The notes under the pieces: model-generated
Seen by the model: only the letters and a program-made list of their open reading frames with translations
Told to the model about the DNA's origin: nothing
Databases searched by the model: none
Origin: Takakia lepidozioides
Taxonomy: Eukaryota; Plantae; Bryophyta
NCBI GenBank assembly: GCA_030704615.1
Contig: CM060733.1
Span: 31,000,001-31,064,000, forward strand
Reading direction: 5' to 3'
DNA length: 64,000 nucleotides
Position numbers and translations under genes: made by a program
In this document: in pieces, positions 33,511 through 62,425 of the stretch
Numbering within the stretch: position 1 is the stretch's first letter
Layout of the letters: the number at the start of each line of letters is the position of its first letter

Positions 33511-33511
33511 A

Positions 33512-39258: not shown

Positions 39259-42200
39259 ATGAGTTCCCCTCGCCCATGCGGAGGACTTCCAATTAATCAC
39301 CCCTGTAGACAGAACACCCGAGATGACAGGTTGTGGGAAAGAGAAGTGGCACGTGCCCGAGCCCTTGGGCTTTCAAGGATGCCATGCCCATGTGAACGTT
39401 GTTTGGGCACTACAAGTAGATTTGAGGACAGTGTGCGCACACATCTCTTTCACCACAAAAGACATGAAGCATTTCGGGTGTGGATTGGAGATGGACCTGC
39501 AGACGAAGACGATGAGGAGTGGGCACAATTGGACAATGCACACCCCCGGGGGAGCCATACAGATAGGCCAGACAAGGACTATGTCATGGGCGCATGACAT
39601 GAACCAGGCATGGACGGAGGGGTGGAGATTACTCGAATGTAGCAGGAAGCATTCCACATCATGGACGATGCTGAAGAGGGGGACGGCGCTGTGACAACTG
39701 GGGATGGTGATGATGCAGGAAATGAAAGCATTCACGTGGGGGAAGGCGTGGAAGGAGGTGGAGATAGAGATGAGAATTCAGCACACATGACACTAGAAGA
39801 AGCATGTCTGCCAGTGTACGAGGGATGCAAATCCACAAAGCTTGCTGCCACCATGCTGTTGATGAACTTGTGCACAACCCACGGTGTCTCAGACCATTTT
39901 GTGGACGAGTTGTTCTCTTTGCTTCAGCTGAACTTGCTTCCTCAACCAAATGAAATGCCAAAAAGCTGTCACATGGCCAACAAAATGATTGGGAAGCTCG
40001 GCCTCAACTACGTGAAAATACATGCATGTCCAAAAAGACATGTACTTTTCAGAAGAGAGTACAAAGACGCTATGGAGTGCCCCAAATGCGGTGCAGCCCG
40101 ATACCATGATGTGGGCAGGTTACAACAGCCAGCCAAGGTGTTGAGGCACTTTCCCCTTATCCCCCGTCTATTACAATGTACAAATGCAAGACCATTAGTG
40201 AGCTCATGACTTGGCATTCCAGGAATGCCTCAAATGATGGTTGGTAAGGCATGTCCCAGATTCCCTTGCGTGGAAGCATATAGATGCAACTTGGCCCGAT
40301 TTCGCCGAGGACCCACGCAATGTGCGATTGGCTGTATCTACGGAAAGAGTAAACCCATACGGATCAAAGAGCTGCACATGGTCCACATGGCCCATGCAGT
40401 TGGTGGCATACAACCTGCCACCATGGTTGACAACAAAGAAATTCTTTGTCATGTTGTCTCTTTGATTCCAGGCAAGGAGTCCGCGACAAATGCAAACATA
40501 GATGTGTATTTGCAACCATTGATTGAAGAGCTACAGGAACTATGGATTGGAGTTGAAGCTTACGACATTTTGAAACAGTAGGGCAACGGAGTTTCACCCT
40601 CCGTGCCATACTCATGTGGTCAATCCACGATTTCCCGCATATGGCCTTGTTGCGGGTTGCAAGACGAAGGGCTACAAAGGGTGCCCCATTTGTGGGCCCT
40701 ATGTGGTTTCACGGCACTCAAAGCCATTGGGGAAGACAATATACATGGGGCATCGACGTTACCTTGCAAGAAACCACCCCTACCGACGAGCAGGAAGGCA
40801 CTTCAATGGATGTGTTGAAAAGAGAATGGCACCAAATGCTGTGACACCGGAGGAGACATTGCAATTTGCAAAGGAGAAAGAGGCGTTCATGGAGATTGGA
40901 GGGAGAGAAGGAAGTAGTGCGGATCCAGCCATGGAGCACGGGGTGAAGCGCCGGACAATCCTTTGGGATTTGCCATACTGGAAGGTGCATGAATCCCCCG
41001 CCCCCCCCCCCCCCCCCATTCACTCACTTTCTTCACATTGTGCTTCCTGGAATTACCTTTACTGTCAGGAGTCCTTCCACCAACTCCTAAGTCAATGTAA
41101 CTACTATGCAGTAGATGTTGAGGTCGTACACCTCACTGTGGAGAGGATTGTGCAGTTGTTGAAAGCAGAATGTAGTAACATGGACAACTTCTGCCACATA
41201 TTCTACTATTTTTGCCCATAGAACTTGGTCTCATGGGAGGACATCTGGCATTTCAGAACCTCTTGCAGCGGTACCTCCTAGACCCCATGCATTGTGAGAA
41301 GAACTTCTGCGAGAACATTCTGAAGACGATCTTGGGGAGAAGGATACGATAAACGTACGAAATGACATGGAGATTGAAGGGATACGGTCACATCTGTGGC
41401 TAAGGCCTGATCCAAATAGACCTCGCAAAGTGCTCATGCCAGCAGCATTATACGTCCTGACCAAATCAGAGCAAGAGCATTTTTTGAAGACATTGGGAGC
41501 CATGAAAGTGCCAACCGGATTCTCGGGTGCTTTCCAAAAGCATGCCATAAACAAGAAATGGTCGGGGATGAAGTCACATGATCTACACGTGATGATGCAG
41601 CAGATTTTGCCAGTGTGCATTCGGGGTACGATGGCGCCGAGTCCTCGAACAGCCATAATGCGTGTAAGTCGAGTGTTTAGGAAGATTTGTGCGAAGGTGT
41701 GGGATCCGAGGGACATTACATCGTTGCATGAGGATGTGGCTATGACCCTATGTTTGCTGGAGAAAGAATTCCCTCCATCATTCTTTGACGTCATGACGCA
41801 CTTGCTAGTGCATCTTGTAGAGGAGCTGCATGTGTGTGGGCCCGTAACCAGCCGTTGGATGTACCCCATGGAGAGGTACATGAAGGATCTGAAGGGGTAT
41901 GTACGCAACATGGCACGGCCAAAGGGGATTATGGCGGAGGGCTACATCCGCGACGAAGCCCTGGGCTTCATGACAGAGTATATGTCTTCATTTGATGCAA
42001 CACAACGACGGGAGTGGGACAAGAACGAGGAAGAAGGAGTTGTAGGCGAGGTCCTAGAAGGTGGTGGAACAAAGCGTGCCATGAGCCCGCGCCTTCGGGA
42101 TGTGGCACATGATTATGTGCTGAACAACACAACAACCATGACACCATGGAGACAGTGGGTGTAAACTTACATCCCTCCTGTGCTATTCTTAATGGTCTTT

Positions 42201-43277
42201 GTATGTTGGAATTACATATATATTGTCACAAGTCATTCCGGCCACTATGGGAGTGGGATCGTGTACTAACAGGGTGCTTCAGATGACTACAGAGGGTGTT
42301 TCGTAGTTGGTGTTGTTGCTTGCAAGTGATTATGAAGTAGGCTGCATCACTACAGTGTGCTTGAAATGACACAATCTGCATGTGGCATGCATGTACAGTA
42401 CGGTGTTGGTCCAGGGGACTGAGTTGCAGATTCTATTTGGTTTCTGCCAGAAAGTACGCAGCAGAGAAGGTCCGCCTGAAAACGGAACGGAGTGCATTTG
42501 CAAAAGCATGGCGGAGGGGCGGTTGTAGGCGCAGATCCCCGGTGGAGTACCCCACAACAATGGAGGAGCTGCAGCCCTTTACAGTGTGGGTCAGATCTGC
42601 AATTGCAGTGTACGCATCAGAGAACGAGGACCCAGATGAGGGCATGGTGAGTCTGTCATTCCCCCCAGGGCTGATTGCCACTTCGTACCGGTCAATGAAA
42701 GCATATGGCAATCATTATAGAGTGGACGATGCCAACACCAGCCTCCTGGTGACTTATGACAACGGAGTGGCATCATTTTTTGAACAAGAGAGTAGGAGCT
42801 ATGCACGAGATCGGAATCCAATTTCATGCCCTGTGCAATATGTAGGAGTCATCAAAGAGATCCTTAAACTAGACTATGGTCTTGTAAAACCAATTCTATT
42901 CCGTTGTTCTTGGGTAAAAGCCAACATGGTAGGAGAGAATGCCACCATGAAACGAGATGAGTACGGGTTCCTCCTTGCTGATTTCAGAAATGCTACCACC
43001 ACAAGATAAAGAGCCATTCATCTTCCCATCGCAAGTTGAGCAAGTTTTCTTTTCAGATGACACCCATGCGCCGGGATGGAAGGTGGTTCTTCACAAGGAC
43101 CCCCGGGCCAAACGAGTCGTGGCCGACGTCCATGATCTGGACCTAGGAGAGAATGGCGACCACGAGGGTCTGAGAGAACCACAAAATCTACCAGATACGG
43201 CCGAACCAGTCTCTTTGGAAGGAGCAGTTACCTTTAATGAGGAAGTCATTCCAGGGTTGATAATTATCGCAAGGTAA
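39259..43277 (+). pseudogene. CACTA Tnp2-family transposase (Transposase_21, DUF4218, DUF4216), several frameshifts
   Basis: MPCPCERC, YVKIHACPK..CPKCG..KVLRHFPLIPRL, DSLAWKHID..FAEDPRNVRLA, YNLPPW, DVYLQPLIEELQELW, ILWDLPYW, GMKSHDLH, FPPSFFDVMTHLLVHL, RWMYPMERY, EPFIFPSQVEQVFF. Confidence 0.95.
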
Positions 43278-45180
43278 ATTGCAGATATGGGCAGTGAAGG
43301 GGAAGATTCTTTGGATATAGATAGTGAGCCCAACTGAATCTCAGCGTCCATTAAGCTGGTAGCTCGTAGACGAGAGCTGTGCTAAGGACTCTTACTGTCC
43401 TTAGAACCCATTTTGTACAGTCCTGCAAGCGCGCAAGGGTGAGACAATTAATAGTATCGATAATGTCCCGGAATGTGGTCCGTACTGTCTTGTGAACAAA
43501 CCTATATTTACAGTATGATTGTAGTTCAGAACCAAAGGGCATATCCTTCAGCCTTGACGTCTTTGCGATCTTCTGCTGTGACGCCTTCTTCATAACTTGA
43601 GAAATGGAAAAGCAGCTACACCTCAAATTATTGCAAGGCCACTCAATGGCACTAAGAACGCTTCGAGTATGCTGTCAGAAAACTAGACGGGCAAAAACCC
43701 AATTCAGCAGCCTCACCTTGCGTGGATACTTGGGAATTGATACCAGAAGGGCATGCCCGTATGCGCGCTCGATCGTGCCTCCATCCAGCACATTCTGTAA
43801 ATGTTGAATGACCAAGACCCCAATGTTACACCCTTCTGAGAAGCCACTACACGCGCTCACAGTATACGAAGGCCTTGCCGTGTCAGGATTCGCATTCCCA
43901 TGTCCTGCCATGTCCGACAAAGCACTTGCATCCCTGTCTCTGCCAGGTGGAGGCAGCACGTATTAAAATATCTATTCCCCCAAGGCCACATTTGATTTAC
44001 CTCTTTTTGTGAAAGCCACGTCAGCAAATGTGCTGCCGAGTCATGGGTGCAATGAATGCGCAGTGGTTCATGGAGTCGTTGAGTCGACTACATATTCACT
44101 TTAATGAATAAATATCTTTATTCCATTAATCGAATTAGAAAAGGAAATTTGTAGTCGCATGTGCAGTAATTACAACCACTTGTAATTTTGGCTTTTTTCA
44201 AATTTTATGTATTTACGCAATTCGTAAAATAGCCCGGAATTCTGCTACGACTCCGGAGTCGTTGACACTTCTGTCCGCCGTCTGAAATGCCCCCGTGGGC
44301 CCACATTGTCTGTTTTGACTCTCCAGTAGTCCAGTTTACTACCAAGTGGTTCCCGGAGTGGTCGCGGACATGCAGTCGATTCGGAAAAGACACGAATGCT
44401 TCTAGTGACCTCCTACACCTTACCATCATGCAGAGCGAGGCACTTTGAGAGAAGTCTGGCAGTTGATAGCATAGATCAGGATTAGATCTTGTTTGGTCGG
44501 GCCTCTATTCTTCCCCTCCCTCTTTGTACTATTTTCATTACTTTGTACTTGTAGTTGCCAAAGCCTCTCTTGGTGGAGGCCAGTCAGTCCGGGGTTTTGG
44601 GCTGGGATATTCTGCAGGATCAGCACTGCAGATGGATTTGGTGTGGGGGTGGTTGATGTTTTGATTTCTTGTGTTTGGATCCCCCCAAACACCTGCATGC
44701 TTGAATGTGCGCCATGTTGGTTTTGTGTGGGTGCTTGCTTTCATAGGGATTAGGCCGGATTTGATCACCGGGCAATCCTAGAGTATGCTGTCGGTGGTGA
44801 GGCTAGAGTGATGACCAGCAAGACCACCAGTGTTTCTTCTATGGTGAGATTGGGTTGATGACCAGCCAACCATATAAGTACTTGCGGTGGATGCAGGTGC
44901 AGGTGCCCTGAGCCACTGGGATATGACCCTTAAATTGCAACAGGTGCCCATCCATGTCACTATTAGAATTAGTAATAGAGCCTTATAGTGTCACGTAGGG
45001 GAGGTGCACATTGTGAGTGTCATTACGGAGTTACCCAAGGGTTCTGAGGGGAGTACAGCTACAGGCAGTAACAATGAGAGTGGGTTCACAAGACGAGGGA
45101 TTTGGTTCAGACCACCTTCACCTCCACCCTCAACTACTGTAGAGTCTGACACAGACCCGAAGGCTTCATCAACAGGTGTG

Positions 45181-45775
45181 AACTGGATTGCCTGAGCTTC
45201 AGTAACCCCTTGGGTCACACTTATCAAGCGCCTCATACGAGTGTAAGCCTCTTGCAGGCTCTCACTGGATTTGCGCTGGAAGTCTTGCAAACTTCGCAGC
45301 TTCTCTGTCCGTACGCCTTGGTAGTTCCTCCGCAACTCGTGGAAGAACTCCACCACCGGGCTGAATCTAGGCACGTGTGTTGTAGTCGTGGCAGGAGGAA
45401 TAGTAGCACCTTCTGCAGAAGTACTGGCACTACTTGTTCCACTACTAGTGCTGGCAGTGGGAGGTATTGGTGCTGATGTCGCTACTGGTCACGTCGTGCC
45501 TCGAGTAATGGAGACGTAGTCAGGTGACCAATACATCCTCCACTCTTTAATCTCCGCTTCATGTCCTCACCTGAACTCGAGGTAATCGTCCATAGGCGGG
45601 CCTTCCAAATGCTGGAACAATCCCTTCCACGCCATGAATGGGGTGAACAGCTGTGGATTGCGCATCTGCTGCAAATCACATCAGCTGTCGAACTCCTGGA
45701 TAAAGTCATCCAGCTCGATTGTGCCCACAGCTCCAGAGTACCTGCGAGGCCCCTTGGTAGCTCCATACATCTCCT
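45181..45775 (-). pseudogene. Inverted gag segment of copy 1 (continues at 57720-57750)
   Basis: Reverse complement of copy 2 ~49830-50440 (RRNYQGVRTEKLRSLQDFQRK..AYTRMRRL). Confidence 0.92.
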
Positions 45776-46130
45776 TGTCAAGTTAAATAAGCACAGTGTG
45801 AAACTAGCTAGAATAAAGCTAGTTATTTGTATTTAACACTTGGATTTAGGTCAAGTGTTAAATCAGGTGTCAAGTTTAGTTTGACACCTGACCCGTCTTA
45901 TCTTCACGAGAGCGGCAGTCGCGCAGCTCATCTTTCTCGAGTTGAGCCTGCGCGACCGAGCTCCTTCATGCGTTTAGATTTGAGTGTGCTTATGATGGGA
46001 GTGTAGGTTGTTGTGGGGTGGAGTCCCCATAGCTTGGGGTGCCCCTGGCTCGACTTCTGTTTTAAAGAGTGATAGCGATGGATTCATGTTGTTTCTGGTG
46101 TGAGCAGTGTGTTTTCTAGTTTTCTTATCA
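45776..46130 (+). repeat. 5' terminal repeat A1 of copy 2
   Basis: 45776-46128 equals 57282-57634 except for one C/T; ends TTATCA. Confidence 0.95.
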
Positions 46131-46144
46131 CTCGAGAAAGATGA
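46130..46144 (+). promoter_or_regulatory. Putative self-priming PBS
   Basis: ACTCGAGAAAGATGA is the exact reverse complement of 45928-45942 inside A1. No tRNA-type TGG.. PBS is present. Confidence 0.8.
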
Positions 46145-46369
46145 CGCCGTATCTAGTTTTCTAGTGCTAAGCTAGATGTGACGTTTTTGTTTTTAAGCAC
46201 TATTATAATATAGCTTGGTCACGAGAGCCGGTAGTTAGACTGGCTATGTGTGCCTAGTGGAGCATAACAGGAAGGCAAGAACCACTCAAAGCGTCGTTGC
46301 AGCAGTTCTAACCTCCTGGGAATGTAGCGGGTCCAAGCTTTTTACAACAAGCAGGTGGGCTGGACCTGC

Positions 46370-47085
46370 TGTTTGGGTCTAAGAAGACTGGGTCGGCGGA
46401 TAGGCCTCTGTGGTTCCCAGGTGCAAAGGCCCCGTCTTGGGCTGGATGGATCTTTGGTTGGTGACTATGGTTTCGATCCACTGTCCCTGGGAAAATCTCC
46501 AGAGTATCTGCAGTTCGAGCTGGATTCACTGAACCAGAACTTGGCTAAGAACCCTGCTGGAGTCGTGATCGGAACCCGTCTTGATAAGAAGAAGGATATC
46601 AACCCCACTCCCTTCCGACCGTACAGTGAGGTGTTCGGCCTCCAAAGGTTCAAGGAATGCGAACTGATCCACGGTAAATGGGCAATGCTTGCCATTGTTG
46701 AGAGTTGTCTGTCGAGACGTTCACTGGCGTGACATGGCAAGATGCTGTAAAGGTGGAACTTGCTGATGGTCCCTCTTACTTCGGTCTCTCGTTGCCGTTC
46801 AGCATCTCTGCTCTTGTCTGGATTGAGACTCTTGTGGTAGGATACATTGAGTTCCAAAGGAATGCCGAGTTAGACCCAGAGAGGCGTCTGTATCCTGGTG
46901 GCAAGTACTTCGATCCCCTCGGACTGGCAGCTGACCCCGAGAAGAAAGAGGTTCTAAAACTCGCCGAAATTAAGCATGCAAGGCTGGCCATGGTTGCTGC
47001 TTTGGGTTTTGCTGTGCAAGCTGCTGCTACAGGCAAGGGTCCCTGGACAACTGGGCCACGCACCTGAGCGAATCCACTCTCACTT
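46370..47085 (+). pseudogene. LHCB4: Captured Lhcb4 (CP29) chlorophyll a/b-binding protein sequence, frameshifted
   Basis: [25 protein letters not shown], the CP29-specific [79 protein letters not shown]. An A23 run follows at 47116-47138. Confidence 0.93.
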
Positions 47086-47169
47086 GCCTGCTGAAAGCAC
47101 CCATCAGCTTTCTTGAAAAAAAAAAAAAAAAAAAAAAACTGTTGGCCTTGTCAGTCTTGTTCACCAAAA

Positions 47170-47502
47170 TCAGTGGGACGTGTAGGCATTACCAAGGCAC
47201 CAGTGAAGGTTGTTGACTTTACCAAGCGAAGTGTGGTAGAGGGCGAGAATGTTGTCATTTGCCACAACGTTATGTTTCCTTCGGCTCTCTACTACTGCCA
47301 TCATGTCACAGGAACCAAGGTGGTGCAGGCGTCGTTGGCAGCTGTAGATGGATCAATCATTCACGCAGTCGCCATATGTCATTTGGATACCAGTCTCTGG
47401 GCATCAGAGCATCCTGCCTTCACGGCTCTCAACATTATTCAGGGAGCCGAAGCATGCCATTGGTCAACTCAGAATGATCTCATCTGGGTGCCCTCCCACT
47501 GA
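47170..47502 (+). pseudogene. Captured BURP-domain C-terminal fragment
   Basis: Four CH motifs: VICHNVMFPSALYYCH..AVAICHLDTSLWASEHPAF..EACHW..DLIWVP. Confidence 0.9.
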
Positions 47503-48344
47503 TGAGGTCCGACCTCTGCTCTCGTTGCTACCGTTTCCAAGTAGTTCTGGGGATCGTAAGGTCAGCTCAGTGGAAAGTACTCTTGCCTATTTCCCTGCCA
47601 ATCGTCCTTTAACCTGCAACGGGCCTCTTGAATAGGCACATATATCAGCCATCAGCAACAATTTTGCATGCATACCTACATAGGTTTTCGGTGTTGATGC
47701 CCAGACACAAGGAATTTCAATTTGCTGTAAAGTGTTAGGCTGGTAGCAGCAGTCTTCTGCATGACTTCTCAAAATCTACCGCTGATGTAGAGCTGAAAGG
47801 CATGTGGAAATGCTTTGAGACTATGTCGGAGATCATCAATCTCGGATGCGCTTAAGCCCAGGCGCTCGAGCTCTGCCGTTGTCCCCAATTCGGTGATGCA
47901 GGGCAATCCGTTATCGCACGCCTGCTGCTCCAGGGTGTGATACCCCATCCATAACTGAGGTCGAGTCTTGGAGTTGAGAGTTCTTGGTGCCTGGAGAAGC
48001 CTGGAGGGGAACGGCCTCGGGAACCCATAGATAACCTGGGAACAGGTTGTAATGGCGAGAACGTTTTGGTGTTAAAAAAAAAAAAAAACCTTTTGATCTA
48101 ATTTAAATGATTTAGAGCCTAACTGTTCATAACTTTGTCAGATGGACTCCGTTTGACTCAGTTTTTGGGAGGATAGCTGCAGAAAGGGGAAATCTACCTA
48201 CCTAGATTCTGTTTCTGTTTTTGGGACTCTGCTAAAAATCTATGGAATTTTTAGAGTGTGAGTGTGCCATAAAAGATCCACAATCCTGTCTCTAGAACCT
48301 GTGCTGGTCTATATGAGAGACAAATCTGTGGATGTACTCCTTGC

Positions 48345-49095
48345 ATGGCTGGGGGAAATGAGGACGTAATTGAAGGGCAGGTCTCTTCTCTTAGCCATGC
48401 ACACAAGGGGACAGGATTTATGTTTCCCAAGGAATTCAGACTGATTTGAGTGGAGAACAGTTGGACGAGTTGATTGCATACTGGGAGTCAGGCATTAGCA
48501 GTAGACAACAGACTGCTGTAGTTGGCATTGAGGGCCTCAATATCGCCTTGGACAGTCAGAACTCTGTTGGAGCCAGCAGTTCTGCAGCTGTAGGTGAAAT
48601 ACCAAAGTGGGTGAAAGCTAGGCTTGGAACACAGCCAAAGACAGCCCCGGGGACCAAGGTGTTCAGCCACAAGGCCGTGGTGTACTAGAGCAGAGGAGCA
48701 GGAGGAGCTACACAAGTTTGTGCAATCAGACATGTTGCAGCCGGATACGCTCTGCAAGGGCAACCACGAGCGGGGGTTCATCAGCAATGACATGTTTGTT
48801 GTGCGTGAAGGAGATGCAGTCATTCGCAATGAGGACACCCCGCAACCGTCTCAAAGCTTTCGAGTTGAGAGACTATCAGACCCTACCTTTGTTTTCTTTA
48901 GTATTCAGTGAGCGGGAGATAGGGGAGTATTGCTTTGTCTCTACCTGGCAGAAAGAGGAGGAGGGTTGGTTAGAGCGAGCTACTGTAGCTTGGGACAAGG
49001 TTAGTGGCAGGTTTCTGGACATAGATATACCTCCTACACCTTACCATCATGCAGAGCGAGGCACTTTGAGAGAAGTCTGGCAGTTGATAGCATAG
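48345..49095 (+). pseudogene. ORF0 upstream of gag, unknown function (homolog in copy 1 at ~28465-28515, 34278-34909, 44411-44475)
   Basis: Both copies encode MAG.NEDVIEGQVSSLS..SGEQLDELIAYWESG..RNRLKAFELRD..WLERATVAWDKVSG..LREVWQLIA*; disruptions differ between the copies. Confidence 0.6.
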
Positions 49096-49619
49096 ATCAG
49101 GATTAGATCTTGCTTGGTCGGGCTTCTATTCTTCCCCTCCATCTCTGTACTATTTTTATTACCTTGTACTTGTAGTTGCCAAAGCCTCTCTTGGTGGAGG
49201 TCAGTCAGTCCGGGGTTTTGGGCTGGGCTATTCTGCAGGATCAGCATTGCAGCTGGATTTTGGTGTGGGGGTGTTGATGTTTTGATTTCTTGTGTTTGGA
49301 TCCCCCCAACACCTGCATGCTTGACTGTGCGCCATGTTGGTTTTGTGTGGGCGCTTGCTTTCATAGGGATTAGGCCGGATTTGATCACCGGTCAATCCTA
49401 GAGTATGCTGTCGGTGGTGAGGCTGGAGTGATGACCAGCAAGACCACCAGTGTTTCTTCTATGGTGAGGCTGGGTTGATGACCAGCCAACCATAGGAGTT
49501 CTTGCGGTGGATGCAGGTGCAGTGCCCTGAGCCATTGGGATATGACCCTTAAACTGCAACAGGTGCCCACCCGTGTCACTATTAGATTAGTACTAGAGCC
49601 TTATAGTGTCACGTGGAGG

Positions 49620-52550
49620 AGGTGCACATTGTGAGTGTCATTACGGAGTTACCCAAGGGTTTTGAGGGAGTACGGCTACAGGCAGTAACAGTGAGAGTGG
49701 GTTCACAAGACGAGGTATTCGGTTCACCCCACCTTCACCGCCACCCTCAATTACTATAGAGTCAGACACAGACTCGGAGGCTTCATCAAGGTGTGCACTT
49801 TCATTCACCATTGTTGTGGGACGACATGGAGGAGATGTATGGAGCTACCAAGGGGCCTCGTAGGTACTCTGGAGCTGTGGGCACAATCGAGTTGGATGAC
49901 TTTATCCAGGAGTTCGACAGCTGGTGTGATTTGCAGCAGATGCGCAATCCACAGCTATTCACCCCATTCATGGCGTGGAAGGGACTGTTCCAGCATTTGG
50001 AAGGCCCGCCTATGGACGATTACCACGAGTTCAGGCGAGGACATGAAGCAGAGATTGAGGAGTGGAGGATGTATTGGTCACCTGACTACGTCTCCATTAC
50101 TCGAGGCACGACGCGACCAGTAGCTGCATCAGTACCAGTAGCTCCCACTGCCAGCACTAGTAGTGGAGCAAGTAGTGCTGGTACTTCTGCAGGTGGTACC
50201 AGTTCAAAAGTGCTACTACTCCTCCTGCCACGACTACAACACATGTGCCTAGATTCAACCCGGTGGTGGAGTTCTTCCAGGAGTTGCGGAGGAACTACCA
50301 AGGTGTACGGACAGAGAAGCTGCGAAGTTTGCAAGACTTCCAGCGCAAACCCAGTGAGAGCCTGCGAGAGGCGTACACTCGTATGAGGCGCTTGATAAGT
50401 GTGACCCAAGGGGTTACTGAAGCTCAGGCAATCCAGTTTTGGTATGGAATTCTGGACAAGGAGCTCAAGAGAAGGGTGCGAGATGCAACCTTGTTACAAG
50501 CAGCCCAACCCACATTAGCAGATGTGTTTCTGCTGGCTGAGCGGATTGAGCTCAACATGGTGGAGGAGCGAGTTGTTACAATTGGATTTGGCAAGGACAT
50601 GCCTGCACGGGGCACAGCTGTCAGCCCACAGGCACAAGGGACTGCCCAACAGCGTGGTCAGGGGGGCAAGGTGCCCAGCCCAAGTTCCATGGAGCTTACA
50701 GGGGACCTCAGGTGCAGAGGCCCGTGCATCTTTTGCAGGCCAACAGCAACCAGGGGTGATATGTTGGACATGTGGAGGACCCCATGTCAAGAGAGATTGC
50801 CCAGAGAGTGGCAGAAGGCCGGCACAAGCACAGCCTGCACAGTTGCAGTGTGGGCATTGTGGCAAGTATGGGCATGGAGATGCCCAGTGTTATGACTTGC
50901 ATCCTGAGTTGCGCCCAGGCCAGTTCCAAGGGAACAATGGTGGCCGGGGGCGAGGTGGACCAGCCCAGAGAGGACGAGGTGGTCGGGCACGAGGTGCAGG
51001 CCAAGGGCAAGCTCAACATGGCCAAGGACGCGGAGGTCAGGGTGTTGATCAAGGCATGGCCAACCGGCTTCAGCAGCTAGAGCAGAGGCTCGCTGCCATG
51101 GCTATAGCTCAGGCGGTACCGGCTCCCAGGCGGGATGGTCCACCTCCTGCTCCCAAGGGAGGAGATATGGGAGGCATGGGATTTATGTGCGGAGCAGCAC
51201 TACCACTAGAGCAGGTGGAGTCTGCTGCAGCCGTGACTCGAGGAGCAGCACGAGTTCCTGAGCCACGAGGTGCAGAGGTGGAATTGGATCCACAGCGTGG
51301 GGAGGCAAGCCGTCAGGCGAGGCTTCCTCAGTCATTCACATTGGCGGAGACTGTGTCGACGCCATCCATGGCACCTAGTTCTCGCCCGACTGTTACCGAG
51401 GCGGAGGTTACTATGCCATTGGGGAGAGCTACACGTGCAGCATGACTCCTGCTGCCAAGGCTAGTGCGGCCGGTGTGTTATTGGGGGCAGCCACCTCTGT
51501 GTGTCAGGCCCCACTGTTCTCGGCAACAATGATTGCGACGCCGGGGGTGAGACCAGCTGCAGTGTTCAGACTAGCAGCAACACTCTGTGAGAGTGGGGAG
51601 GTCACTTCATCTTCTGCGGAGTTAGTGGAAGGTGTAGTGGCAGAGGGATCCTCGGATTTGAGGGTCAAGACTGCCACGGCTGCGCCATGGCAAGCTGCAG
51701 CTGCCAGGTTGACGGAGCTGCCAGCTAGGCCAGCCTTTGAGCGCGCCACGGTGACACCTGGAGTTGTCTTGTTAGACAACCAGGGAGGCATTTTCACTCT
51801 GAGTGGACCGGCAGGCAAGAAGTACCGGCCACTGCGGGTCTTGTTGGACTCGGGAGCTCAGCCACTGATGTTGGGCAGAGCTGCTATTGCAGGTTTGGGC
51901 CTCATGGAGGCGGATATGGAGCCTTGTCCTTTCCAGATACAGACATCTCTGGGAGGATCAGAGCAGGCTCGGGCATGACACGGCATCAGTTGGCCATTAG
52001 ACTGCAGCCGGATCATCCTAGAGATGGCTCAGTGATGCGAGCCAAGGCCATTGTGACAGACGCGGTCTCTTACGATGTCCTCGTTGGTGGGGCAGTGTTA
52101 TACCCCATGGGCTTCACCCTGGACTTTTGGGAGGAGTCAGCATCCTACAGGCCTGGATGGCAGTCAGGCGATGGTCGCCGTGCACAGCTCCCTGTGACAT
52201 TCATTGGGGGTATAGCGGCTGCCCAGCGGGGCAAGATGCCAACACTAGCCGCCTTTACAGCTGCAGTTAGTTGGCCTGGAGAGTTGCTGGAAGGCAATGC
52301 CCATGCAGAGGATGTGCCACCTCCAGCAGAGCAGGATGACATGCATGGTATGGCGGAGTTGCCTGCCATGGTTGCTCACACTCCATTGTGGGGTACGAGC
52401 AAGGATTTGCAGCAGGTTGCTGATCGACGGGTGCAACAAGCCTGGGTAGAGGCTTTTGTACCGTCAGAAGAGGAGGAGAGTGCGGGTATTGCACCAGGAC
52501 CACCTCAGTTGTCACCATTGGATACCACACCTATTGTGTGGCAGTATCCG
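49620..52550 (+). pseudogene. gag (two zinc knuckles) and aspartic protease of copy 2
   Basis: Capsid-like ELRRNY..FQRKPSESLREAYTRMRRL, CWTCGGPHVKRDC, CGHCGKYGHGDAQC, protease VLLDSGAQ (~51840) and YDVLVG. The start is approximate; several 1-nt frameshifts. Confidence 0.88.
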
Positions 52551-52559
52551 GATGAAGGC

Positions 52560-53525
52560 ATTTGCCTTCTGGACTTGTTTGGCGGGATCAGCACTGGATT
52601 GGCTGCTGTGCTACAGGCAGGTGTGCGGGTAAGGTGTTACCTGTATGTGGAGAGGGATGAGACTGCACGACGCGTCTCACTGCGCCATGTTGCTCAGTTG
52701 GTACAACAGTACCCTGCTTTGTTGCCAGTGTCTGCAGTTCGTGGATACCAACAAGCCTTGCCAGCAGACATTTCGTTGTTGGGGGCGCCGGATTTGGAGC
52801 AGGTTGGCTCCATTGATCTGGTAGTGGCAGGTTGGCCCTGCCAAGGGCATTCATCAGCCGGGCATGGCAATGGATTGCGAGACTCGAGGACGGGTCTGTT
52901 TTGGGAGATGGTGCGGATTTTGCGCCACTTGCAGCTTCATCAAGCTGTATCGCCAGCATACATCTTGGAGAATGTGCCACTGATGGGCGATTCTCGGGCC
53001 AGGGTGATGGCCAGTGTGCATCAAGTCCGGTCGTGGCTTGGGTCAGCAGTGTTGCTGGATGCAGCTGCAGTGGGGTCACGGGCTCATCGTCCACGGCTTT
53101 GGTGGACTAACTTGATGCCACCTGCACTACTCAAGCGTGCATTTGATGGGGTGCAGCGGCCAGCACACCTCACCGTGGATGGCATTTTGGACACAGGGAG
53201 GCAGTCTCAACGTGTGAGACACGATGACCGTTCGCCTTTGGCAGTGGTCAACAGGGTGGGTCAACCACGAGCAGCATTACCTACACTGCTCAGCTTCCCA
53301 GGATCCCATGCTTTTCGGGATGGTGGACCTGGCCTCCTGTGGGATGCTCAGTTGCAGCAGTTAGTGGAGCCTAATGCCGACGAGCGAGAGCGGGCTATGG
53401 GGTTTTCCACTGGGACCACGGCGGTGCCTTCTCTTTCTGAGGCATCACGTCGTCAGGTGTTGGGGCAAGCAATGGATCTCAATTGCTTGACCTGGATTAT
53501 CAGCTTGGCTATGGCTGAGCAACGT
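52560..53525 (+). CDS. C5 cytosine DNA methyltransferase domain (DNMT3-like) inside the retrotransposon polyprotein
   Basis: Uninterrupted frame with motif I LLDLFGGISTG, II YVERD, IV DLVVAGWPCQ, GLFWEMVRIL, VI YILENV, VIII SRAHRPRLWWTNL, IX ERERAMGF and X RRQVLGQAMD. Confidence 0.95.
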
Positions 53526-53804
53526 AGAGTGCGGAGTGCACTCCCTTCATGGTCTCTCTGCCTACCGAGACGGTACAGGCAGCGAGTGGGGGGAGCCGGT
53601 GAGGACCACGGGGTGTAGACATCCATGGCACACGTGGGAGGTGCTCGAGGTTCAGAGGGAGTTGGCAGCCAAGGCAGCTGTGATGGATGAGGTTGGGGAT
53701 TCTTCTCGGGATGAGGAGGTTCTCAATGATGAGATGATGGGGCAGGATGAGGCCTTGTCATGACTGAGCAGGAAGGGAGTACTGCTCAAGAGGTTGCAGC
53801 ATAG

Positions 53805-56800
53805 CAACCACGGGACGCGTCCTCTACCTCTAAGCCCACTGGACTTAAGGTTGCAGTTACGGAGGACAATTGGGAGCCTGACATTGGACCCATTGTCACC
53901 GGAGGAGAGAGACGACGTATACGGCGGTTCCTGAGGGCTTACAGAATTGTTTTGCCTTCAGTTTGAAGGACTTGGGAGCACTGAAGGGTCAAGAGATTGA
54001 ATTGAGTTGGCCACTGACACGCCAATCTTTCGGAGACCCTATAGATACAGTGACATGGAGAGGTCCTTGATTCAGATGAGAACTCAGGATCTCTGGGAGG
54101 CAGGTTTGGTGGAGCTCTCTGGTGGAGAGTATGCTTCAGCCACAGTGATGCCAGCCAAGAAGGATGTCTATGGCAATTGGACGGAGAGACGTATGTGCGG
54201 TGATTACCGGCCTGTAAATCGTCAGACCAAGTCCGATAGGTATGCCATGCCGACACCAGAGGAGATCTTTGATGCCATTGGGCATTCCAAGGTCTTTAGC
54301 ACGTTGGATTTACGATCCGGATATCACCAGTTGCCGATCAAGGAGGCGGATAAGCAAAAGACGGCATTCTGGGGGATCAATGAGCACGGGAAGGATTGCC
54401 TATACCAGTGGCGGTTCTTACCATTTGGGCTTAAAAACGCTCCCGCTGAGTTTCAAAGAGTCATGGACAGGATTCTAGCAGGGGTGGAGTTTGCTCGGTG
54501 CTACATAGATGACATCATCATCTTTAGTGCTACGGTGGAGGAGCATGAGAGACACCTTCAGGGGGTATTTGAGCGCTTGAGGGCGCACGGATTGAAGTTA
54601 CATCCGGGAAAGTGCAAGTTTTTCCACAACCAGATTGAGTATCTGGGTCACATGATATATCCTGGAGGATTGGGGGTACAGCAGACTAAGGTAGAGTCCA
54701 TTGCACAGGTTCCACGCCCCACGGATGTGAGCCGAGTTCGAGCTTTCATGGGGTTAGCAAACTATTACAGACGGTTTGTTAAGGGATTTAGTGCCATTGC
54801 AAAGGCTCTAACCAAGCTGACCAAGGTGGACCAGGAGTGGCAGTGGGAAGATGAGCAAGAACAAGCTTTTCAAGAGCTCAAGGCGAGGTTGACCTCGGCG
54901 CCCATCTTGAGACGACCTATCAGGGGGCGTCCTTTTCAGCTGCATACAGATTGGAGCATGCTGGGGCTTGGAGCGGTGCTCACACAGGTGGATGATGAGG
55001 GAAGAGAGTTCGTAGTGGCTTATGCTAGCCGCTCGAACAATGCTGCAGAGTCTAAGTATAGCTCATATGAGGGAGAATGCTTAGCTGCAGTGTGGGCCGT
55101 GGCACACTTCAGGTGCTATCTATACGGCAATCTCTTCACCCTTGTCACGGATCACCAACCACTCAAGTGGTTGATGGAGTCAGACAAGCTTACGGGGAAG
55201 CTTGCACGGTGGGCACTCATCCTTCAAGAGTATGACTTTCAGGTGGTGCATCGACCGGGTTTGGTCAATCGCAATGCAGATGGGTTGAGTCGCAATCCAT
55301 GCACGAGCCAACAGGATGACACTGGAGCTCGGTGGCATGGTGAGACGGACGAGGAGATGGTGCCCGGATGGCATGCATCTGCATTTCTGTGTATCTTGGC
55401 AGCGGAAGGCCAGGTTGGACCTGCAACAGGGATGACTGTAGATCAAGTGTCTGAGGACCCTGAGGCCAGCAATGAGCAAGGTGGCGCCAAAGATATACAT
55501 GAGGATTCAGTTGTGTTGGACTACCTCCGCACTGGAGACACGGCAGCCACTGTGACTGCCAAGGAGAGGGATCGGATCCTACAACGAGCCAAGAGGTTCA
55601 AGTGGGAGGGACACACCTGCTCCGAGTGTGGGAGGATGGTCGAGTGAGGATTGTGCCTCACCCAACACAGCGGGCACGGTTAGTGCGCCATGCCCATGAG
55701 GAGTTGGGGCATTTTGGGGTGCGACGCACTCATAGTCTACTGCAGGGGCAGTATTGGTGGCGTGGTATGCACACAGAGGTGCAACAATTTGTGGCTAGGT
55801 GCATGGTGTGTGACAGGGTGCGTGCTTCATTCAACGCCCCTACTCCACAATTGCACCATCTTCCGATCATGGGATTGGGCTACAGGTGGAGTCTTGACTT
55901 CGCAGGGCCATTGCCACTGACCATGCGCCACAACAAGTACGTGTTGGTGATGGTGGAGCACTTCTCCAAGTGGATTGAATTGGTTCCATTGCCTGATAAG
56001 GCTAGTGAGGGAGCTGCGTATGCATTCTTGGATTGTGTGCTTAGCCGATTCGGTGCTCCAGCTGAGGTACTCACGGACCAAGGGAGAGAGTTTTTGGGGG
56101 AGTTTCAGGCGTTGTGTGACAAGGCCTTGATAGACCACCGCACCACTTCTCGGGATCATCCTGAGGCCGATGGCTTGGCAGAAAGAGTTGTTCAGACAGT
56201 AAAGAGGGGTTTGCGCAAGTATGGCTTGCAGAAGGGACACCTAGGAGATTGGGACCTTCAGTTACCCTGGTTAGCCATGGGCTACAGGTTCAGCAAGCAA
56301 GCATCACTTGCCTCCTTCTCACCATACTTTCTTCTCTTTGGCCGAGAGCCGGATTTGCCTACATCCATTCGCAGAGAAGCTGCTACAGTTCTTAACCTTG
56401 ACGATCCGGACGTGTGGGCACGTGCATGTGAGCAGCGTGCAGAGTTGTTCAAGAGAGTCATGCCCATGGCTTTCGAGAACCTTGCCATTGCACAACACCG
56501 TGATACGTTGAGGTATGCTACCATACGTGGTGGGGGCTATCGTCCTGGGGTTTGGAGATTCAACCCTGGTGACTATGTCTATCTGCAGCAAACTGCTCCT
56601 ACGACCCTGGATGTGACTGCAGGACGTGTTATTTTGAGGATTCGAGAGGTCTTGCCCTCAGGCGTCTTGGTCTTGGAGGGTCGGGATGGCATAACTTGGA
56701 AGGACCATGTGCGTAATTGTGCGCCATGTCACCTTCCAAATGTCGATGGCAGGATTGACCCAAACCTGGCAGTGGTATCTGCAGGTTTGAGGTGCATGTT

Positions 56801-56935
56801 GTGTGGGTCTGCTAAAGGGGCAGCCACCATGCTGGTGTGTGATCGATGCTCTAGAGGTTGGCATATGGGATGCTTGACTCCACTCTTGAGATGGTTCCGG
56901 ATGGGGATTGGTTATGTCCACATTGCATTGGATAG
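53805..56935 (+). pseudogene. RT-RNase H-integrase-PHD of copy 2
   Basis: [81 protein letters not shown], then C4HC3 PHD. Frameshifts at ~53945-54000, ~55610 and ~56885. Confidence 0.95.
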
Positions 56936-57179
56936 TGGGAGTGGATACAACCATGGAAGGCTAACAAGAAACGCAAGGCCCAGCTACAGGAGACCTTGAA
57001 TACACGAAGTCCTGGCTCAAGTTCACAGATTGCAAGACGACGACTAACGATGGGGCTACTCTTGTACCCGGCCTCTTGGTCTATAGAGTTTGAGTACGAT
57101 AGGGACAGTGATAGAGGACTTAGTACGGCTATGGCTATTACGTCTTGTAGCTATCTGGAGGTAGAAGGACCTATCCACC

Positions 57180-57194
57180 AGCTAGGGGGGCAAT
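57180..57194 (+). promoter_or_regulatory. Polypurine tract
   Basis: AGCTAGGGGGGCAAT immediately before TGTGGT of repeat X1. Confidence 0.75.
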
Positions 57195-57719
57195 TGTGGT
57201 AGACTACTTTATTGTGCATATATGTGTGGTGTGGTTTGGACAGCGATGTAGTTGTGTAGCGATACGTATGCGCACGACAGCTGTCAAGTTAAATAAGCAC
57301 AGTGTGAAACTAGCTAGAATAAAGCTAGTTATTTGTATTTAACACTTGGATTTAGGTCAAGTGTTAAATCAGGTGTCAAGTTTAGTTTGACACCTGACCC
57401 GTCTTATCTTCACGAGAGCGGCAGTCGCGCAGCTCATCTTTCTCGAGTTGAGCTTGCGCGACCGAGCTCCTTCATGCGTTTAGATTTGAGTGTGCTTATG
57501 ATGGGAGTGTAGGTTGTTGTGGGGTGGAGTCCCCATAGCTTGGGGTGCCCCTGGCTCGACTTCTGTTTTAAAGAGTGATAGCGATGGATTCATGTTGTTT
57601 CTGGTGTGAGCAGTGTGTTTTCTAGTTTTCTTATTGTGGTAGACTACTTTATTGTGCATATATGTGTGGTGTGGTTTGGACAGCGATGTAGTTGTGTTGC
57701 AATACGTATGCGCACAACA
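57195..57719 (+). repeat. 3' terminal structure X1 (57195-57279) - GC - A2 (57282-57634) - X2 (57635-57719)
   Basis: X1 and X2 are 85-bp direct repeats (3 mismatches); A2 equals A1; the X1/A2 junction reads CAGCTG. Confidence 0.93.
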
Positions 57720-57751
57720 TCCTCCATGTCGTCCCACAATAATGGCGAAGA

Positions 57752-60700
57752 AGACAGTTGTAGTGTAGGCATTGTGGCAAGTATGGGCATGGAGATGCCC
57801 AGTGTTATGACTTGCACCCTGAGTTGCGGCAAGGCCAGTTCCAAGGGAACAATGGTGGCCGAGGGCGAGGTAGAGCACCTCAAAGAGGATGAGGTGGTCA
57901 GGCACAAGGTGTAGGACGAGGGCAAGCACAGTATGGCCAAGGACGTGGAGGTTAGGGCGTTGACCAAGGCATGGCTAACCGGCTTCAGCAACTAGAGCAA
58001 ATGATTGCTGCCATGGCCACAGCTCAGGTGGTACCAGCTCCAAGACCTGAGGGTCCACCTCATGTTCCTCCTCAGCAGCGTCATCCTGACGGAGGAGACA
58101 TGGGAGGCATGGGATTTATATGTGGGGCAGCACTACCACTAGTGCAGGTGGAGTCTGCTGCAGCCGTCACTCGAGGAGCAACACGAGTTCATGAGCCACG
58201 AGGTGCAGAGGTGGAGTTAGATTCACAGCATGGGGAGGCAAGCTGTCAGACTAGGTTGCCTCAATCATTCATCTTGGGGGAGACAGTGTCGACGACATCC
58301 ATGGCACCTAGTTTTCGCCCGACAGATACAGAGGCCGTTATTGTGCCATTGGGGAGAGCTACACGTGCAGCACTGACACATGTTGCCAAGGCTAGTGCAG
58401 CCAGTGTGTTGTTGGGGGCAGCCACCTCTCTATGTCAAGCCCCACTGTTCTCGACAACCATGATCGTGACGCCGGGGGTAAGACCAGCTGCAGTGTTCAG
58501 ACTAGCAGCAACACTCTGCGAGAGTGGGGAGGTCACTTCATCTTCTGGAGAGTTGGTGGAAGGTGTAGTGGTAGAGGAATCCTCGGATTTGAGGGTCAAG
58601 ACTGCCATGGCTGCGCCATGGCAAGCTGAGCTGCCAGGTTGACGGAGCTGCCAGCTAGGCCAGCCTTTGAGCGCGCCATGGTGACACCTGGAGTTGTTTT
58701 GTTAGACAACCAGGATGTCATTTTCTCTTTGAGTGGACCCGCAGGCAAGAGGTACCGGCCACTGCGGGTCTTGTTGGACTCGGGAGCTAAGCCACTGATG
58801 TTGGACAGAGCTGCTATTGCAGGTTTGGGCCTCATGGAGGCGGATATGGAGCCTCGTCCTTTCCAGATACAGACATCTCTGGGAGGATCAGAGTAGGCTC
58901 GGGGCATGACACAGCGTGAGTTGGTTATTAGACTACAGCCGGATCATCCTATAGATGGCTCAGTGATGCGAGCCAAGGCCATCGTGACAGATGCAATATC
59001 TTACGATGTCCTCGTTGGTGGGGCAGTGTTATATCCCATGGGCTTCACCCTGGATTTTTAGGAGGAGTCAGCATCCTACAGGCATGGATGGCAGTCAGGG
59101 GATGGTTGTCGTGTACAGCTCCCTATGACATTCATTGGGGATGCTGCTGCTGCCCAACGGGGCAAGATGCCAACACTAGCCGCCTTTACAGCTACAGTTA
59201 GTTGGCCTGGAGAGTTGCTGGAGGGCAATGCCCATGCAGAGGATGTGCCACCTCCAGCAGAGCAGGATGACATGCATGGTACGGCGGAGTTGTCTGCCAT
59301 GGTTGCTCACACTCCATTGTGGGGTATGAGCAAGAATTTGCAGCAGGCTGCTGATAGACGGGTGCAACAAGCCTGGGTAGAGGCCTTCGTATCGTCAGGA
59401 GAGGAGGAGAATGCAGTGATTGCACCAGGACCACCTCAGTTGTCGCCATTGGACACCACACCTCTTGCGTAGCAGTGCCCACATGAAGGCATATGCCTTC
59501 TGGACTTGTTTGGCGGGATCAGCACTGGATTGGCTGCAGTGCTGTAGGCAAGTGTACGAGTTCGACGTTATCTGTATGTGGAGAGGGATGAGACTGCACG
59601 ACGCGTCTCACTGCGCCATGTTGCTCAGTTGGTGCAGCAGTACCTGATTTGTTGCTTGTGTCTGCAGTTCGTGGATACCAACAAGCATTGCCAGCAGACA
59701 TCTCTTTGCTGGGGGCGCATGATTTGGAGCGGGTTGACTCTATTCACTTGGTAGTGGCAGGTTGGCCTTGCCAAGGGCATTCATCAGCCGGGCATGACAA
59801 TGGGTTACAAGACTCAAGGTCATGCCTGTTTTGGGAGATGTTGAGGGTCCTACGCTATTTACAGCTTCAGCAGACAGACCCTCCGGCATATATCTTGGAG
59901 AATGTGCCATTGATGGGTGATTCTAGGGCCAAGGTGATGGCCAGTGTGCATCAAGTGCGGTCTTCGCTTGGATTAGCAGTGTTGCTGGACGCAGCTGCAG
60001 TGGGGTCACGGGCTCATCACCCACGACTATGGTGGACCAACTTGATGCCACCTGCACTGCTCAAGTGTGCATTTGATGGGGTGCAGCGGCCACCACAGCT
60101 GACGGTGGATAGCATTTTGGACATAGGGAGACAGTCTCAGCGTGTGAGACACGATGACCGGTCACCTTTGGCAGTGGTCAATAAGGTGGGTCACCCACGA
60201 GCCACATTGCCTACACTGCTCAGCTTTCCAGGATCCCATGCTTTTCGGGATGGTGGACCTGGCCTCTTGTGGGATAGCCAGTTGCAGCAATTAGTAGAGT
60301 CCAATGCTGACGAGGGCGAGCGGGCGATGGGTTTTACCACTGGTACCACGGCGGTGCCATCTCTTTTTGAGGCATCGCATCGTCAGGTGTTGGGGCAAGC
60401 AATGGATCTCAATTGCTTGACCTGGATTATTAGCTTGGCTATGGCTGAGCAGCGCAGAGTACGGAGTACACTTCCATTGATGGTCTCCCTGCCTACCGAG
60501 ACGGTACAGGCAGCGAGTGGGGGCGAACAGGTGAGGACCACGAGGTGCAGGCCGCATCCATGGCACACGTGGGAGGTGCTCGAGGTTCAGAAGGAGTTGG
60601 CAGCCAAGGCGGCGGTGATGGATGAGGTTGGGGATTTTTTTCGGGTTGAGGAGGTCCTCAAGGATGGGATGATGGGCCAGAATGAGACATTGTCACTGAC

Positions 60701-61539
60701 TGAGGAGGCAGTGGTCACCGCTCAAGAGGTTGCAGCATAGCAACCACGGGACGCGTCTTCTACCTCTAAGCCTGCTGGACTCAAGGTTGCAGTCACGGAG
60801 GACAACTGGGAGCCTGATGTTGGACCTATAGTCACCGGAGGAAAAAGACGACGTATACGGCGGTTCTTGAGGGCTTACAGGAACTGCTTTGCCTTCAGTT
60901 TGAAGGACTTAGGAGCACTGAAGGGTCAAGAGATTTGCATTGAATTGGCTACTGACACGCCAATCTTTCGGAGACCCTATAGATACAGTGACATGGAGAG
61001 GTCCTTGATTCAGATAAGAACTCAGGACCTTTGGGAGGCTGGTTTGGTGGAGCTATCTGGGGGAGAGTATGCTTCAGCCACAGTGATGCCAGCCAAGAAG
61101 GATGTCTATGGCAATTGGACGGAGAGACGTATGTGCGGTGATTACCGACCTGTAAATTGTCAGACCAAGTCCGATAGGTATGCCATGCCAACACCAAAGG
61201 AGATCTTTGATGCCATTGGGCATGCCAAGGTCTTTAGCACTTTGGATTTACGATCCAGATATCACCAGTTGCCGATCAAGGAGGCGGATAAGCAGAAGAC
61301 GACATTCTGGGGGATCAATGAGCACGGGAAGGATTGCCTATACCAGTGGCGGTTCTTACCATTTGGGCTTAAAAATGCTCCCGCTGAGTTTCAAAGAGTC
61401 ATGGACAGGATTCTAGCAGGGGTGGAGGTTGCTCGGTGCTACATAGATGACATCATCATCTTTAGTGCTACGGTGGAGGAGCATGAGAGACACCTTCAGG
61501 GGGTATTTGAGCGCTTGAGGGCGCACGGATTGAAGTTAC
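57752..61539 (+). pseudogene. Copy 1 gag end, protease, C5-MTase (~59490-60460) and RT N-terminal part, with nonsense mutations
   Basis: Highly similar to 50840-54600: LLDSGA, GWPCQ, ILENV, RAHHPRLWWTNL, YIDDII. Premature TAGs at ~58894, ~59059, ~59470 and ~59545. Confidence 0.93.
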
Positions 61540-62161: not shown

Positions 62162-62425
62162 TGTGTCAAGCGGTGACTGGCTGTGTTTGGCTGTGTGGGC
62201 TGTGTCTGCTGTGACGACTGTGACGGGCTGTGTGGGCTGTGTGGGCTGTGACGACTGTGACGGGCTGTGTGGGCTGTGACGGCTGTGTGGACTGTGACGG
62301 GCTGTGTGGGCTGTGACGGGCTGTGTGGGCTGTGACGGCTGTGTGGGCTGTGTGGGCTGTGACGACTGTGATGACTGTGACGGGCTGTGTGGGCTGTGAC
62401 GGCTGTGACTGCTGTGTGGGCTATG
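62162..62425. repeat. Short-period tandem repeat (GGCTGTGTG / GCTGTGACG units)
   Basis: Directly visible. Confidence 0.9.

Follow-up and report, generated by a model that had tools for sequence, protein, structure and literature searches.

A DNMT3-type cytosine methyltransferase (MTase) inside a Gypsy retrotransposon is already known from one alga. This element, KnitGypsy-Dnmt3, was described by de Mendoza et al. (2018) from Klebsormidium nitens only (PMC5890265; this paper, the other sources given by PMC number and a 2026 preprint are cited from excerpts). It was reported to combine Gypsy domains with a DDE integrase, an unpermuted Dnmt3-like domain in the polyprotein, DIRS-like repeats (legend to Fig. 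4c) and purifying selection. Here, we analysed a stretch of 64,000 nucleotides from the bryophyte Takakia lepidozioides (assembly GCA_030704615.1, contig CM060733.1, positions 31,000,001–31,064,000), hereafter the window, in which a young Ty3/gypsy copy at 45776–57719 is inserted into an older copy of the same family. The young copy shares with the algal element a Dnmt3-related, unpermuted methyltransferase with conserved catalytic residues, a Gypsy polyprotein, repeats in the order A-coding-B-A-B, and common descent. It differs in that its family lives in a land plant, is very abundant and has a stop codon in a readthrough context between the MTase and the reverse transcriptase (RT). The excerpted text on KnitGypsy-Dnmt3, figures aside, makes no mention of a PHD finger, a 4-bp duplication, a junction palindrome or a self-priming primer-binding site (PBS), all of which are described below.

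Further parallels are spread over several other groups. In Tf1/Sushi and Tcn1, as here, the PBS is complementary to the transcript of the element's own long terminal repeat (LTR) and not to a tRNA (PMC6317226); those elements have normal LTR pairs, whereas the window element has no chromodomain, and its RT is about 35% identical to that of a chromovirus in the same window. PAT, TOC, Kangaroo and Ngaro have the repeat order A1-coding-B1-A2-B2 (PMC4157794), and SymbioDIRS-Dnmt3 also carries a Dnmt3. However, all of these use a tyrosine recombinase, whereas the window element has a DDE integrase, TG...CA ends, a polypurine tract (PPT) and a 4-bp duplication. Foamy virus offers a precedent for junction cutting, as its integrase can cleave the palindromic LTR-LTR junction of two-LTR circles to processed ends (PMC1180852). 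There, the palindrome is the junction itself and cutting it restores the order of parts, whereas the palindrome found here lies inside the LTR and its cleavage would permute the element. Finally, host DNMT3 enzymes (mammalian DNMT3A/B and Physcomitrium DNMT3b) resemble the window MTase in fold (TM-score 0.71 by query, 0.83 by target) and catalytic motifs, but the latter is only about 21% identical and is a bare, intronless catalytic domain from a polyprotein. The coordinates of all features are given in Table 1.

Table 1. Features located in the 64,000-nt window.
Feature	Position	Strand	Basis and remarks
Left 4-bp target-site duplication, TCCT	45772–45775	.	Sequence; right twin at 57720–57723
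Repeat A1 (TGTC start, CA end), putative 3' part of the true LTR	45776–46130	+	Comparison with A2
Predicted self-primer, a part of A that can pair with the PBS	45928–45941	+	14-bp perfect pairing
PBS directly 3' of A1, without the initial TGG of a tRNA-type PBS	46131–46144	+	Pairing with the self-primer
Variable cargo in the 5' leader	46145–48020	+	Pfam E 8.7e-21 and 1.5e-27; no counterpart in the older copy's leader
gag	49826–51700	+	Capsid-like region and two Cys/His knuckles in translation; four frameshifts
Aspartic protease, LLDSGA at 51841–51858	51754–52160	+	Motif; frameshift near 51971
DNMT3-like C5-cytosine methyltransferase	52530–53534	+	Open frame, standard motif order, Pfam DNA_methylase E 4.8e-13
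Conserved TAG followed by CAA-CCA (CAR-YYA), predicted readthrough signal	53802–53810	+	Conservation; consensus from PMC2754532
Reverse transcriptase (YIDD) and RNase H	54001–55260	+	Pfam RVT_1 E 8.7e-33
Integrase (HHCC, D-D-34-E) with C-terminal PHD finger	55617–56930	+	Pfam rve E 3.7e-14, PHD E 2.6e-5
Polypurine tract AGGGGGG directly 5' of B1	57184–57190	+	Conservation across loci
Repeat B1 (TGTGG...GACA), putative 5' part of the true LTR	57195–57279	+	Sequence comparison
Palindrome GACA-GC-TGTC at the B1/A2 join, predicted integrase attachment site	57276–57285	.	2-nt spacer
Repeat A2	57282–57634	+	Self-comparison of the window
Repeat B2, right terminus (..ACA)	57635–57719	+	Sequence comparison
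Older copy of the same family, 5' half	26124–45775	+	Begins with A at 26124; carries cargo of its own, a nested chromovirus, a nested CACTA and an inverted piece of gag
Older copy, 3' half (formerly copy 1)	57720–61539	+	Broken gag-protease-MTase; RT cut off by another insertion
Chromovirus nested in the older copy (protease, RT, RNase H, integrase, chromodomain)	28517–34272	-	5-bp target-site duplication CTTAG
CACTA transposon nested in the older copy (Transposase_21, DUF4218)	34909–44406		3-bp target-site duplication ACC
Multi-exon ubiquitin-activating enzyme E1 gene	8153–about 15200	+	Sole clear host gene seen

A sequence-only reading of the window had placed an intact, DNMT3-like MTase with unpermuted motifs between the LLDSGA protease and RT, and both its place and its kinship were borne out. 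The frame comprises 335 open codons within an open reading frame (ORF) at 51741–53618 and holds all motifs (LFGGI at residue 16, GWPCQ at 101, ENV at 147, AHRPRLWW at 185, ERAMGF at 287 and LGQAMD at 311); the profile search suggested by that reading returned DNA_methylase. A search of the PDB by sequence placed DNMT3A first (E 6e-10), then DRM (3e-5) and HhaI (2e-4), and a 44-sequence MTase profile gave the same order (2e-22, 5e-12 and 2e-6, respectively). The AlphaFold model had a predicted local distance difference test score (pLDDT) of 89.8, and all 32 rows shown by Foldseek were DNMT3A/B/C, with a best E of 1e-19. Based on sequence, profile and predicted fold, each of which ranks DNMT3 first, ahead of DRM, DNMT2 and bacterial enzymes, the MTase is DNMT3-like and unpermuted. 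DRM, DNMT2 and bacterial origins were rejected by this ranking alone. In the alignment, the catalytic loop and the target-recognition region differ from those of DNMT3A. A CG specificity should not be assumed for the MTase, because the host DNMT3b of the moss Physcomitrium makes CHH methylation (PMC6453930).

The catalytic Cys is retained in 73 of 76 MTase copies and the motif-I Phe in all 69 examined. The ratio of nonsynonymous to synonymous substitution rates (dN/dS) between the young and older window copies was 0.15 and not near 1, the value that the sequence-only reading had regarded as fatal. Including this pair, 7 of the 11 measurable pairs fell at 0.04–0.15, and four pairs from distant subfamilies gave 0.12–0.15. 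Values of 0.46–0.81 were obtained for four pairs of close decayed copies, and 5 of 16 pairs were saturated. These ratios support purifying selection on the MTase. It should be noted that, between the young and older copies, the synonymous divergence (dS) of the MTase (0.39; 52530–53534) is far above that of RT (0.09; 54001–54600), which suggests recombination between subfamilies.

The limits proposed earlier for the young copy also stood, as it starts with TG, ends with CA and is flanked by TCCT on either side. The order protease-RT-RNase H-integrase and the DDE integrase of canonical Ty3/gypsy elements are both present (Pfam; D-D-34-E spacing). The distance from the second D to E is 34 residues (window 55617–56400; protein P0173), as in the Klebsormidium protein, whereas 35 residues are usual. 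According to Pfam, the integrase C-terminus has no chromodomain and bears a PHD finger in its place. The gag region matches Retrotrans_gag with E 7e-4, under the Pfam cutoff, and its N-terminal blocks are 70–78% identical to Marchantia Mp4g09160; the relatives of the protease match Asp_protease_2 weakly.

The reading frames of the young copy are shifted at about 12 places (near 50208, 50660, 50704, 51378, 51971, 53540, 53598, 53762, 53945, 54000, 55616 and 56884), once in the interval from the protease active site to the MTase, and hold no premature stops apart from the conserved TAG. In read contigs from three studies, additional letters are present at 12 or more places, matching most of these frameshifts; the gaps are thus private to the assembled sequence, and would be either assembly errors or losses specific to this copy. 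Homopolymer errors are partly borne out as a source, with 4 of 10 checked places adjoining a run of at least three. Judged by its frames, the copy as assembled is unable to make the polyprotein. In one run, 81,062 contig pieces matched the family, of which 35,992 were alike at 99% or more; by this sequence evidence, the host species harbours a young and very abundant family. The summed contig depth, which is not a copy number, suggests thousands of copies. The earlier view of a recently active element is supported by these near-identical pieces and by the two A repeats of the young copy (1 difference in 353 sites).

For comparison, 80 loci were fetched, all of them selected by their MTase. The order gag-protease-MTase-RT-RNase H-integrase-PHD was found in most of them wherever the contig extends, as expected from the sequence-only reading, which had called the MTase a stable feature of the family. 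Contigs from three studies span the MTase and its flanks. Relatives at 50–76% MTase identity occur in Marchantia, Calypogeia, Riccia and Sphagnum, and more distant ones in Klebsormidium (46%) and Closterium (35–39%). No vascular-plant names were present among the matches listed (120, 61 and 120 rows, most of them without an organism name). The nearest named relatives are liverworts and mosses, which, together with plant gene pieces in the 5' leader, agrees with the land-plant host deduced earlier from the letters alone. In Marchantia, the family is present as long uninterrupted gene models, and the MTase of Mp4g09160 is 75% identical to that of the window.

The Klebsormidium protein KFL_009030040 has the same domain order, with 46% identity in the MTase and 58% in the integrase; we infer that this K. 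nitens protease-MTase-RT-RNase H-integrase protein is the published KnitGypsy-Dnmt3. In the RT tree (FastTree), the MTase-bearing elements form one clade apart from 11 outgroup rows, with a Shimodaira–Hasegawa-like (SH) support of 98; row L035, which is probably the RT of another element, was disregarded. The main groups of this tree recur in the MTase tree, which was built without a host-DNMT3 outgroup. Since relatives exist in Marchantia, Calypogeia, Riccia, Sphagnum and Closterium, the comparison points to one old MTase capture and not a new one, shared with KnitGypsy-Dnmt3, in a lineage common to streptophyte algae and bryophytes. The window element is not an independent example beside that of Klebsormidium: the two trees and the identities place both in the same lineage.

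A second architecture was also observed, in which the same MTase clade lies between RNase H and integrase (RT-RNase H-MTase-integrase-PHD). Its members include P0157, P0158, P0161–P0165, P0172, P0230, P0240, P0243 and P0314 and form their own clade in both trees. Altogether, 524 clusters (50% identity) matched the MTase profile at E below 1e-30. One RT-integrase-PHD protein (P0276) carries a Dam adenine methylase domain (PF05869) and falls outside the cytosine-MTase clade.

The split terminal repeats, the predicted self-priming site and the putatively leaky stop all escaped the sequence-only reading. The repeats have the layout A...B-A-B: A at 45776–46128 matches 57282–57634 (99.7%), and B at 57193–57279 matches 57633–57719 (96.6%). 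Two equal LTRs directly flanked by the target-site duplication (TSD) were not found, as the left end has A only and the right end B-A-B. With the TSD lying beyond B2, A1 and A2 were rejected as an ordinary LTR pair. The GACA-GC-TGTC junction between B1 and A2 reproduces both element termini plus 2 nt. This spacer was 2 nt long in all 11 junctions seen (GC in six) and holds in the subfamilies L029 and L042, which have about 50% MTase identity. The layout is shared by fetched loci at about 65% MTase identity, and the PPT before B1 is kept in most of the 18 loci shown, as well as in L029 and L042. A 4-bp target duplication was present at all six distinct sites where both ends were available, making 7/7 with the window, although the TG terminus is mutated in two of the six.

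At the A2/B2 join of the window, the terminal CA of A is missing, 2 nt being shared. The join is ragged, with extra letters, in two of seven loci, and in one of them 9 nt of the PBS are kept. We infer from these sequences that A2/B2 is an end-to-end join of LTR ends. In four older full copies, divergence was alike within A pairs (5.5–9.4%) and B pairs (6.2–8.8%), and no fixed B1-versus-B2 differences were found across seven pairs. A Pfam search of the window ORFs and of 20 long relatives found rve and no tyrosine recombinase.

The pairing of the self-primer with the PBS in the young copy was not equalled in any of 200 shuffles, and the RNA fold had a z-score of -4.25. The older copy pairs over 17 bp with a compensatory change. 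Elsewhere, pairings of up to 23 bp with a different sequence occur in moss-type loci, and one of 16 bp with a third sequence occurs in L029. A PBS complementary to a 5' LTR stretch, with covariation, as in Tf1, was found at 11 of 19 A1 ends, which pair at the same site with unrelated primer sequences (matched by no more than 5 of 200 shuffles). In moss-type loci only, the predicted primer lies 20–30 nt downstream of a TATA-like box.

Between the MTase and RT, both window copies carry TAG-CAA-CCA (the older one at 60738). Among the 61 loci that span this interval, TAG-CAR-YY was found in 42 and TAA-CAR-YY in 12, and the motif is in frame with RT in 52 of these 54; it occurred anywhere in 9.6% of shuffled segments. 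In L029, 1369 open codons are followed by one TAG and then by 1047 open codons. UAG followed by CAR-YYA is the readthrough signal of tobacco mosaic virus (PMC2754532).

Based on these features, we suggest the following pathway, which as a whole seems to us somewhat more probable than its failure: the element would prime itself, join its LTR ends, be cut at the internal GACA-GC-TGTC and have its own cDNA methylated by the MTase. The RNA would very probably start inside A, with its first 14–20 nt pairing with the PBS in a Tf1-like manner. In Tf1, self-priming includes cleavage of the paired 5' stretch of the transcript. With nearly the same confidence, the LTR made by RT would be B-GC-A at both ends, since the PPT precedes B and the PBS follows A; given these positions, the LTR ends would differ from the ends of the inserted element. 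The LTR ends would then be joined (A2/B2), and a staggered cut made by integrase within the left LTR, at CA^GC, would yield the TG...CA ends and the order A...B-A-B, a step to which we give slightly better than an even chance. Joining could precede the cut, on a free two-LTR circle, or follow strand transfer, through host repair. For most retroelements, the two-LTR-circle route is a dead end. It is likely that ORF1 encodes Gag-protease-MTase and that RT-RNase H-integrase-PHD is made by UAG readthrough, so that the MTase would be packaged at a Gag-like excess. As RT-integrase would be scarce and Gag-protease-MTase abundant, many MTase molecules would be present in the particle where the cDNA is made. 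For the next step, the chances look evenly balanced: the MTase may methylate the cDNA or the fresh insertion, serving as heterochromatin-like camouflage or damping the element's own expression. The PHD finger possibly steers integration. The broadest version of this proposal is doubtful, although worth stating: a green-lineage clade that predates land plants and still abounds in bryophytes would have shifted its integrase attachment site to the middle of the LTR, integrate two-LTR circles and load a pre-methylating DNMT3 by means of a leaky stop.

A number of observations weigh against this pathway. A free two-LTR circle has two attachment sites, so the model needs an asymmetry, for example a left LTR that is finished first. 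The mirror form A-B-A...B was seen in none of 20 loci with a 5' end. In the window, A1 and A2 differ at 1 of 353 sites and B1 and B2 at 3 of 85. The first B runs straight into the flank at 12 of 21 ends; one-LTR insertions, B-B recombination and short-read collapse would all fit these ends. Self-priming fails at 8 of 19 A1 ends. Many of the loci are the same insertions assembled more than once, and the counts given above therefore overstate independence. Concerning the stop codon, the motif of moss-type copies, CAA-CCC, departs from the CAR-YYA consensus and has an in-frame ATG after it, and reinitiation at this ATG is a rival to readthrough there; the Klebsormidium protein and the environmental proteins P0192, P0208 and P0221 are predicted as continuous MTase-RT products. 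As for the enzyme, the motif-VIII arginines are retained in only 46 of 81 and 60 of 81 copies, the losses being mostly CpG-type changes in decayed copies. KnitGypsy-Dnmt3 gave no methylation of yeast DNA, a result called inconclusive by its authors (PMC5890265). The observed/expected CpG ratio of the element (0.50) is at the background level of the window (0.54); elsewhere, it was 0.89 in the chromovirus, 0.55 in CACTA and 0.57 in an exon of the ubiquitin-activating enzyme gene (UBA1).

The repeat layout could also arise by rebuilding of the ends as in PAT and Ngaro, elements that are defined by the same A1-B1-A2-B2 order (PMC4157794). In that case, the RNA would run from A1 into B2, and RT would copy the internal B-GC-A junction as a template through extra jumps. 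The resulting linear cDNA, with GC at either end, would be trimmed and inserted by integrase in the ordinary way, without an internal cut. This would account for the exclusive occurrence of A...B-A-B, and the 2-nt spacer would equal the amount removed by 3' processing. Integrase removes 2 nt in that reaction. We consider this route unlikely, as the PPT before B1 and the PBS after A1 mark other ends, neither of which is an element terminus, as the ragged A2/B2 join with PBS sequence kept once looks like an end-to-end join, and as the fixed differences between B1 and B2 are absent in the seven pairs.

If the self-primed, internally cut pathway is right, the MTase may still have another role: it could act in trans on the chromatin of the host or on competing elements, target RNA, or serve in the particle as a DNA-binding protein. 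The lack of methylation by the algal enzyme in yeast (PMC5890265), a CpG deficit no larger than background, and the divergent catalytic loop and target-recognition region, which make the sequence context unpredictable, speak for such a role; the retention of the catalytic PC, ENV and S-adenosylmethionine-binding motifs across the lineage, the fusion to Gag-protease, with which the domain would travel in the particle, and the maintenance of the MTase in two different polyprotein positions speak for cDNA methylation. We regard another role as possible but the less probable of the two outcomes. An artefact or accident (a host gene captured by chance, insertions nested in one another or repeats assembled wrongly) could be suspected from the dozen or so frameshifts, the other host gene pieces in the leader and the heavily nested region, and is nevertheless extremely improbable. 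The same order recurs across dozens of loci and is seen in named genomes as well, split repeats with 4-bp duplications recur at independent sites, the MTase is under purifying selection, and the contigs of three studies cover it with its flanks; for the MTase, the artefact reading is already refuted.

The Gypsy-Dnmt3 element reported in 2018 was a curiosity of a non-model species. The same lineage is present in Marchantia polymorpha, a genetic model plant, and the purpose of a transposon-borne MTase can therefore be asked there. The literature search, which did not cover subscription papers, Repbase, figures or bioRxiv supplements, found no description of these elements in land plants; the wording of the 2026 preprint is limited to 'streptophytes (Gypsy-DNMT3)'. 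Likewise, integration by cleavage at an internal site was found described for no retrotransposon in the literature searched. The literature searched also gave no earlier account of the family's occurrence and abundance in bryophytes, of one old clade, of the arrangement for readthrough or of the proposed integration at an internal site. Surveys that look for paired LTRs bounded by a TSD (PMC6317226, methods) would pass over this abundant family, because its TSD does not flank its repeats. In addition, MTase-bearing copies would inflate or confuse the counts of DNMT genes in bryophyte genomes.

The leader cargo of the young copy consists of a piece of a chlorophyll a/b-binding (LHC) gene with poly(A) (A-run at 47116–47138) and a BURP-domain piece. 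The leader of the older copy (26494–28158) holds a different cargo, namely a protein-kinase piece (Pkinase E 4e-4) and further pieces. It is possible that the family captures mRNA fragments during reverse transcription.

The older copy has its MTase (59461–60464) in the position claimed for it by the sequence-only reading, which had also taken the frame to be intact; stops near 59470 and 59545 and a frameshift near 59642 were found in it. The start of its gag is inverted, with about 400 bp deleted (45181–45775 and 57720–57760), and the insertion target of the young copy lies in this inverted piece. In the nested chromovirus, part of the 5' LTR and gag are apparently deleted, and the CACTA element includes an ORF with an NIF/HAD phosphatase domain (37405–38241, minus strand). 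Outside these elements, tandem arrays were found at 21963–22511 (65-bp unit) and 62179–62425 (9/10-bp unit of the GGCTGTGT type).

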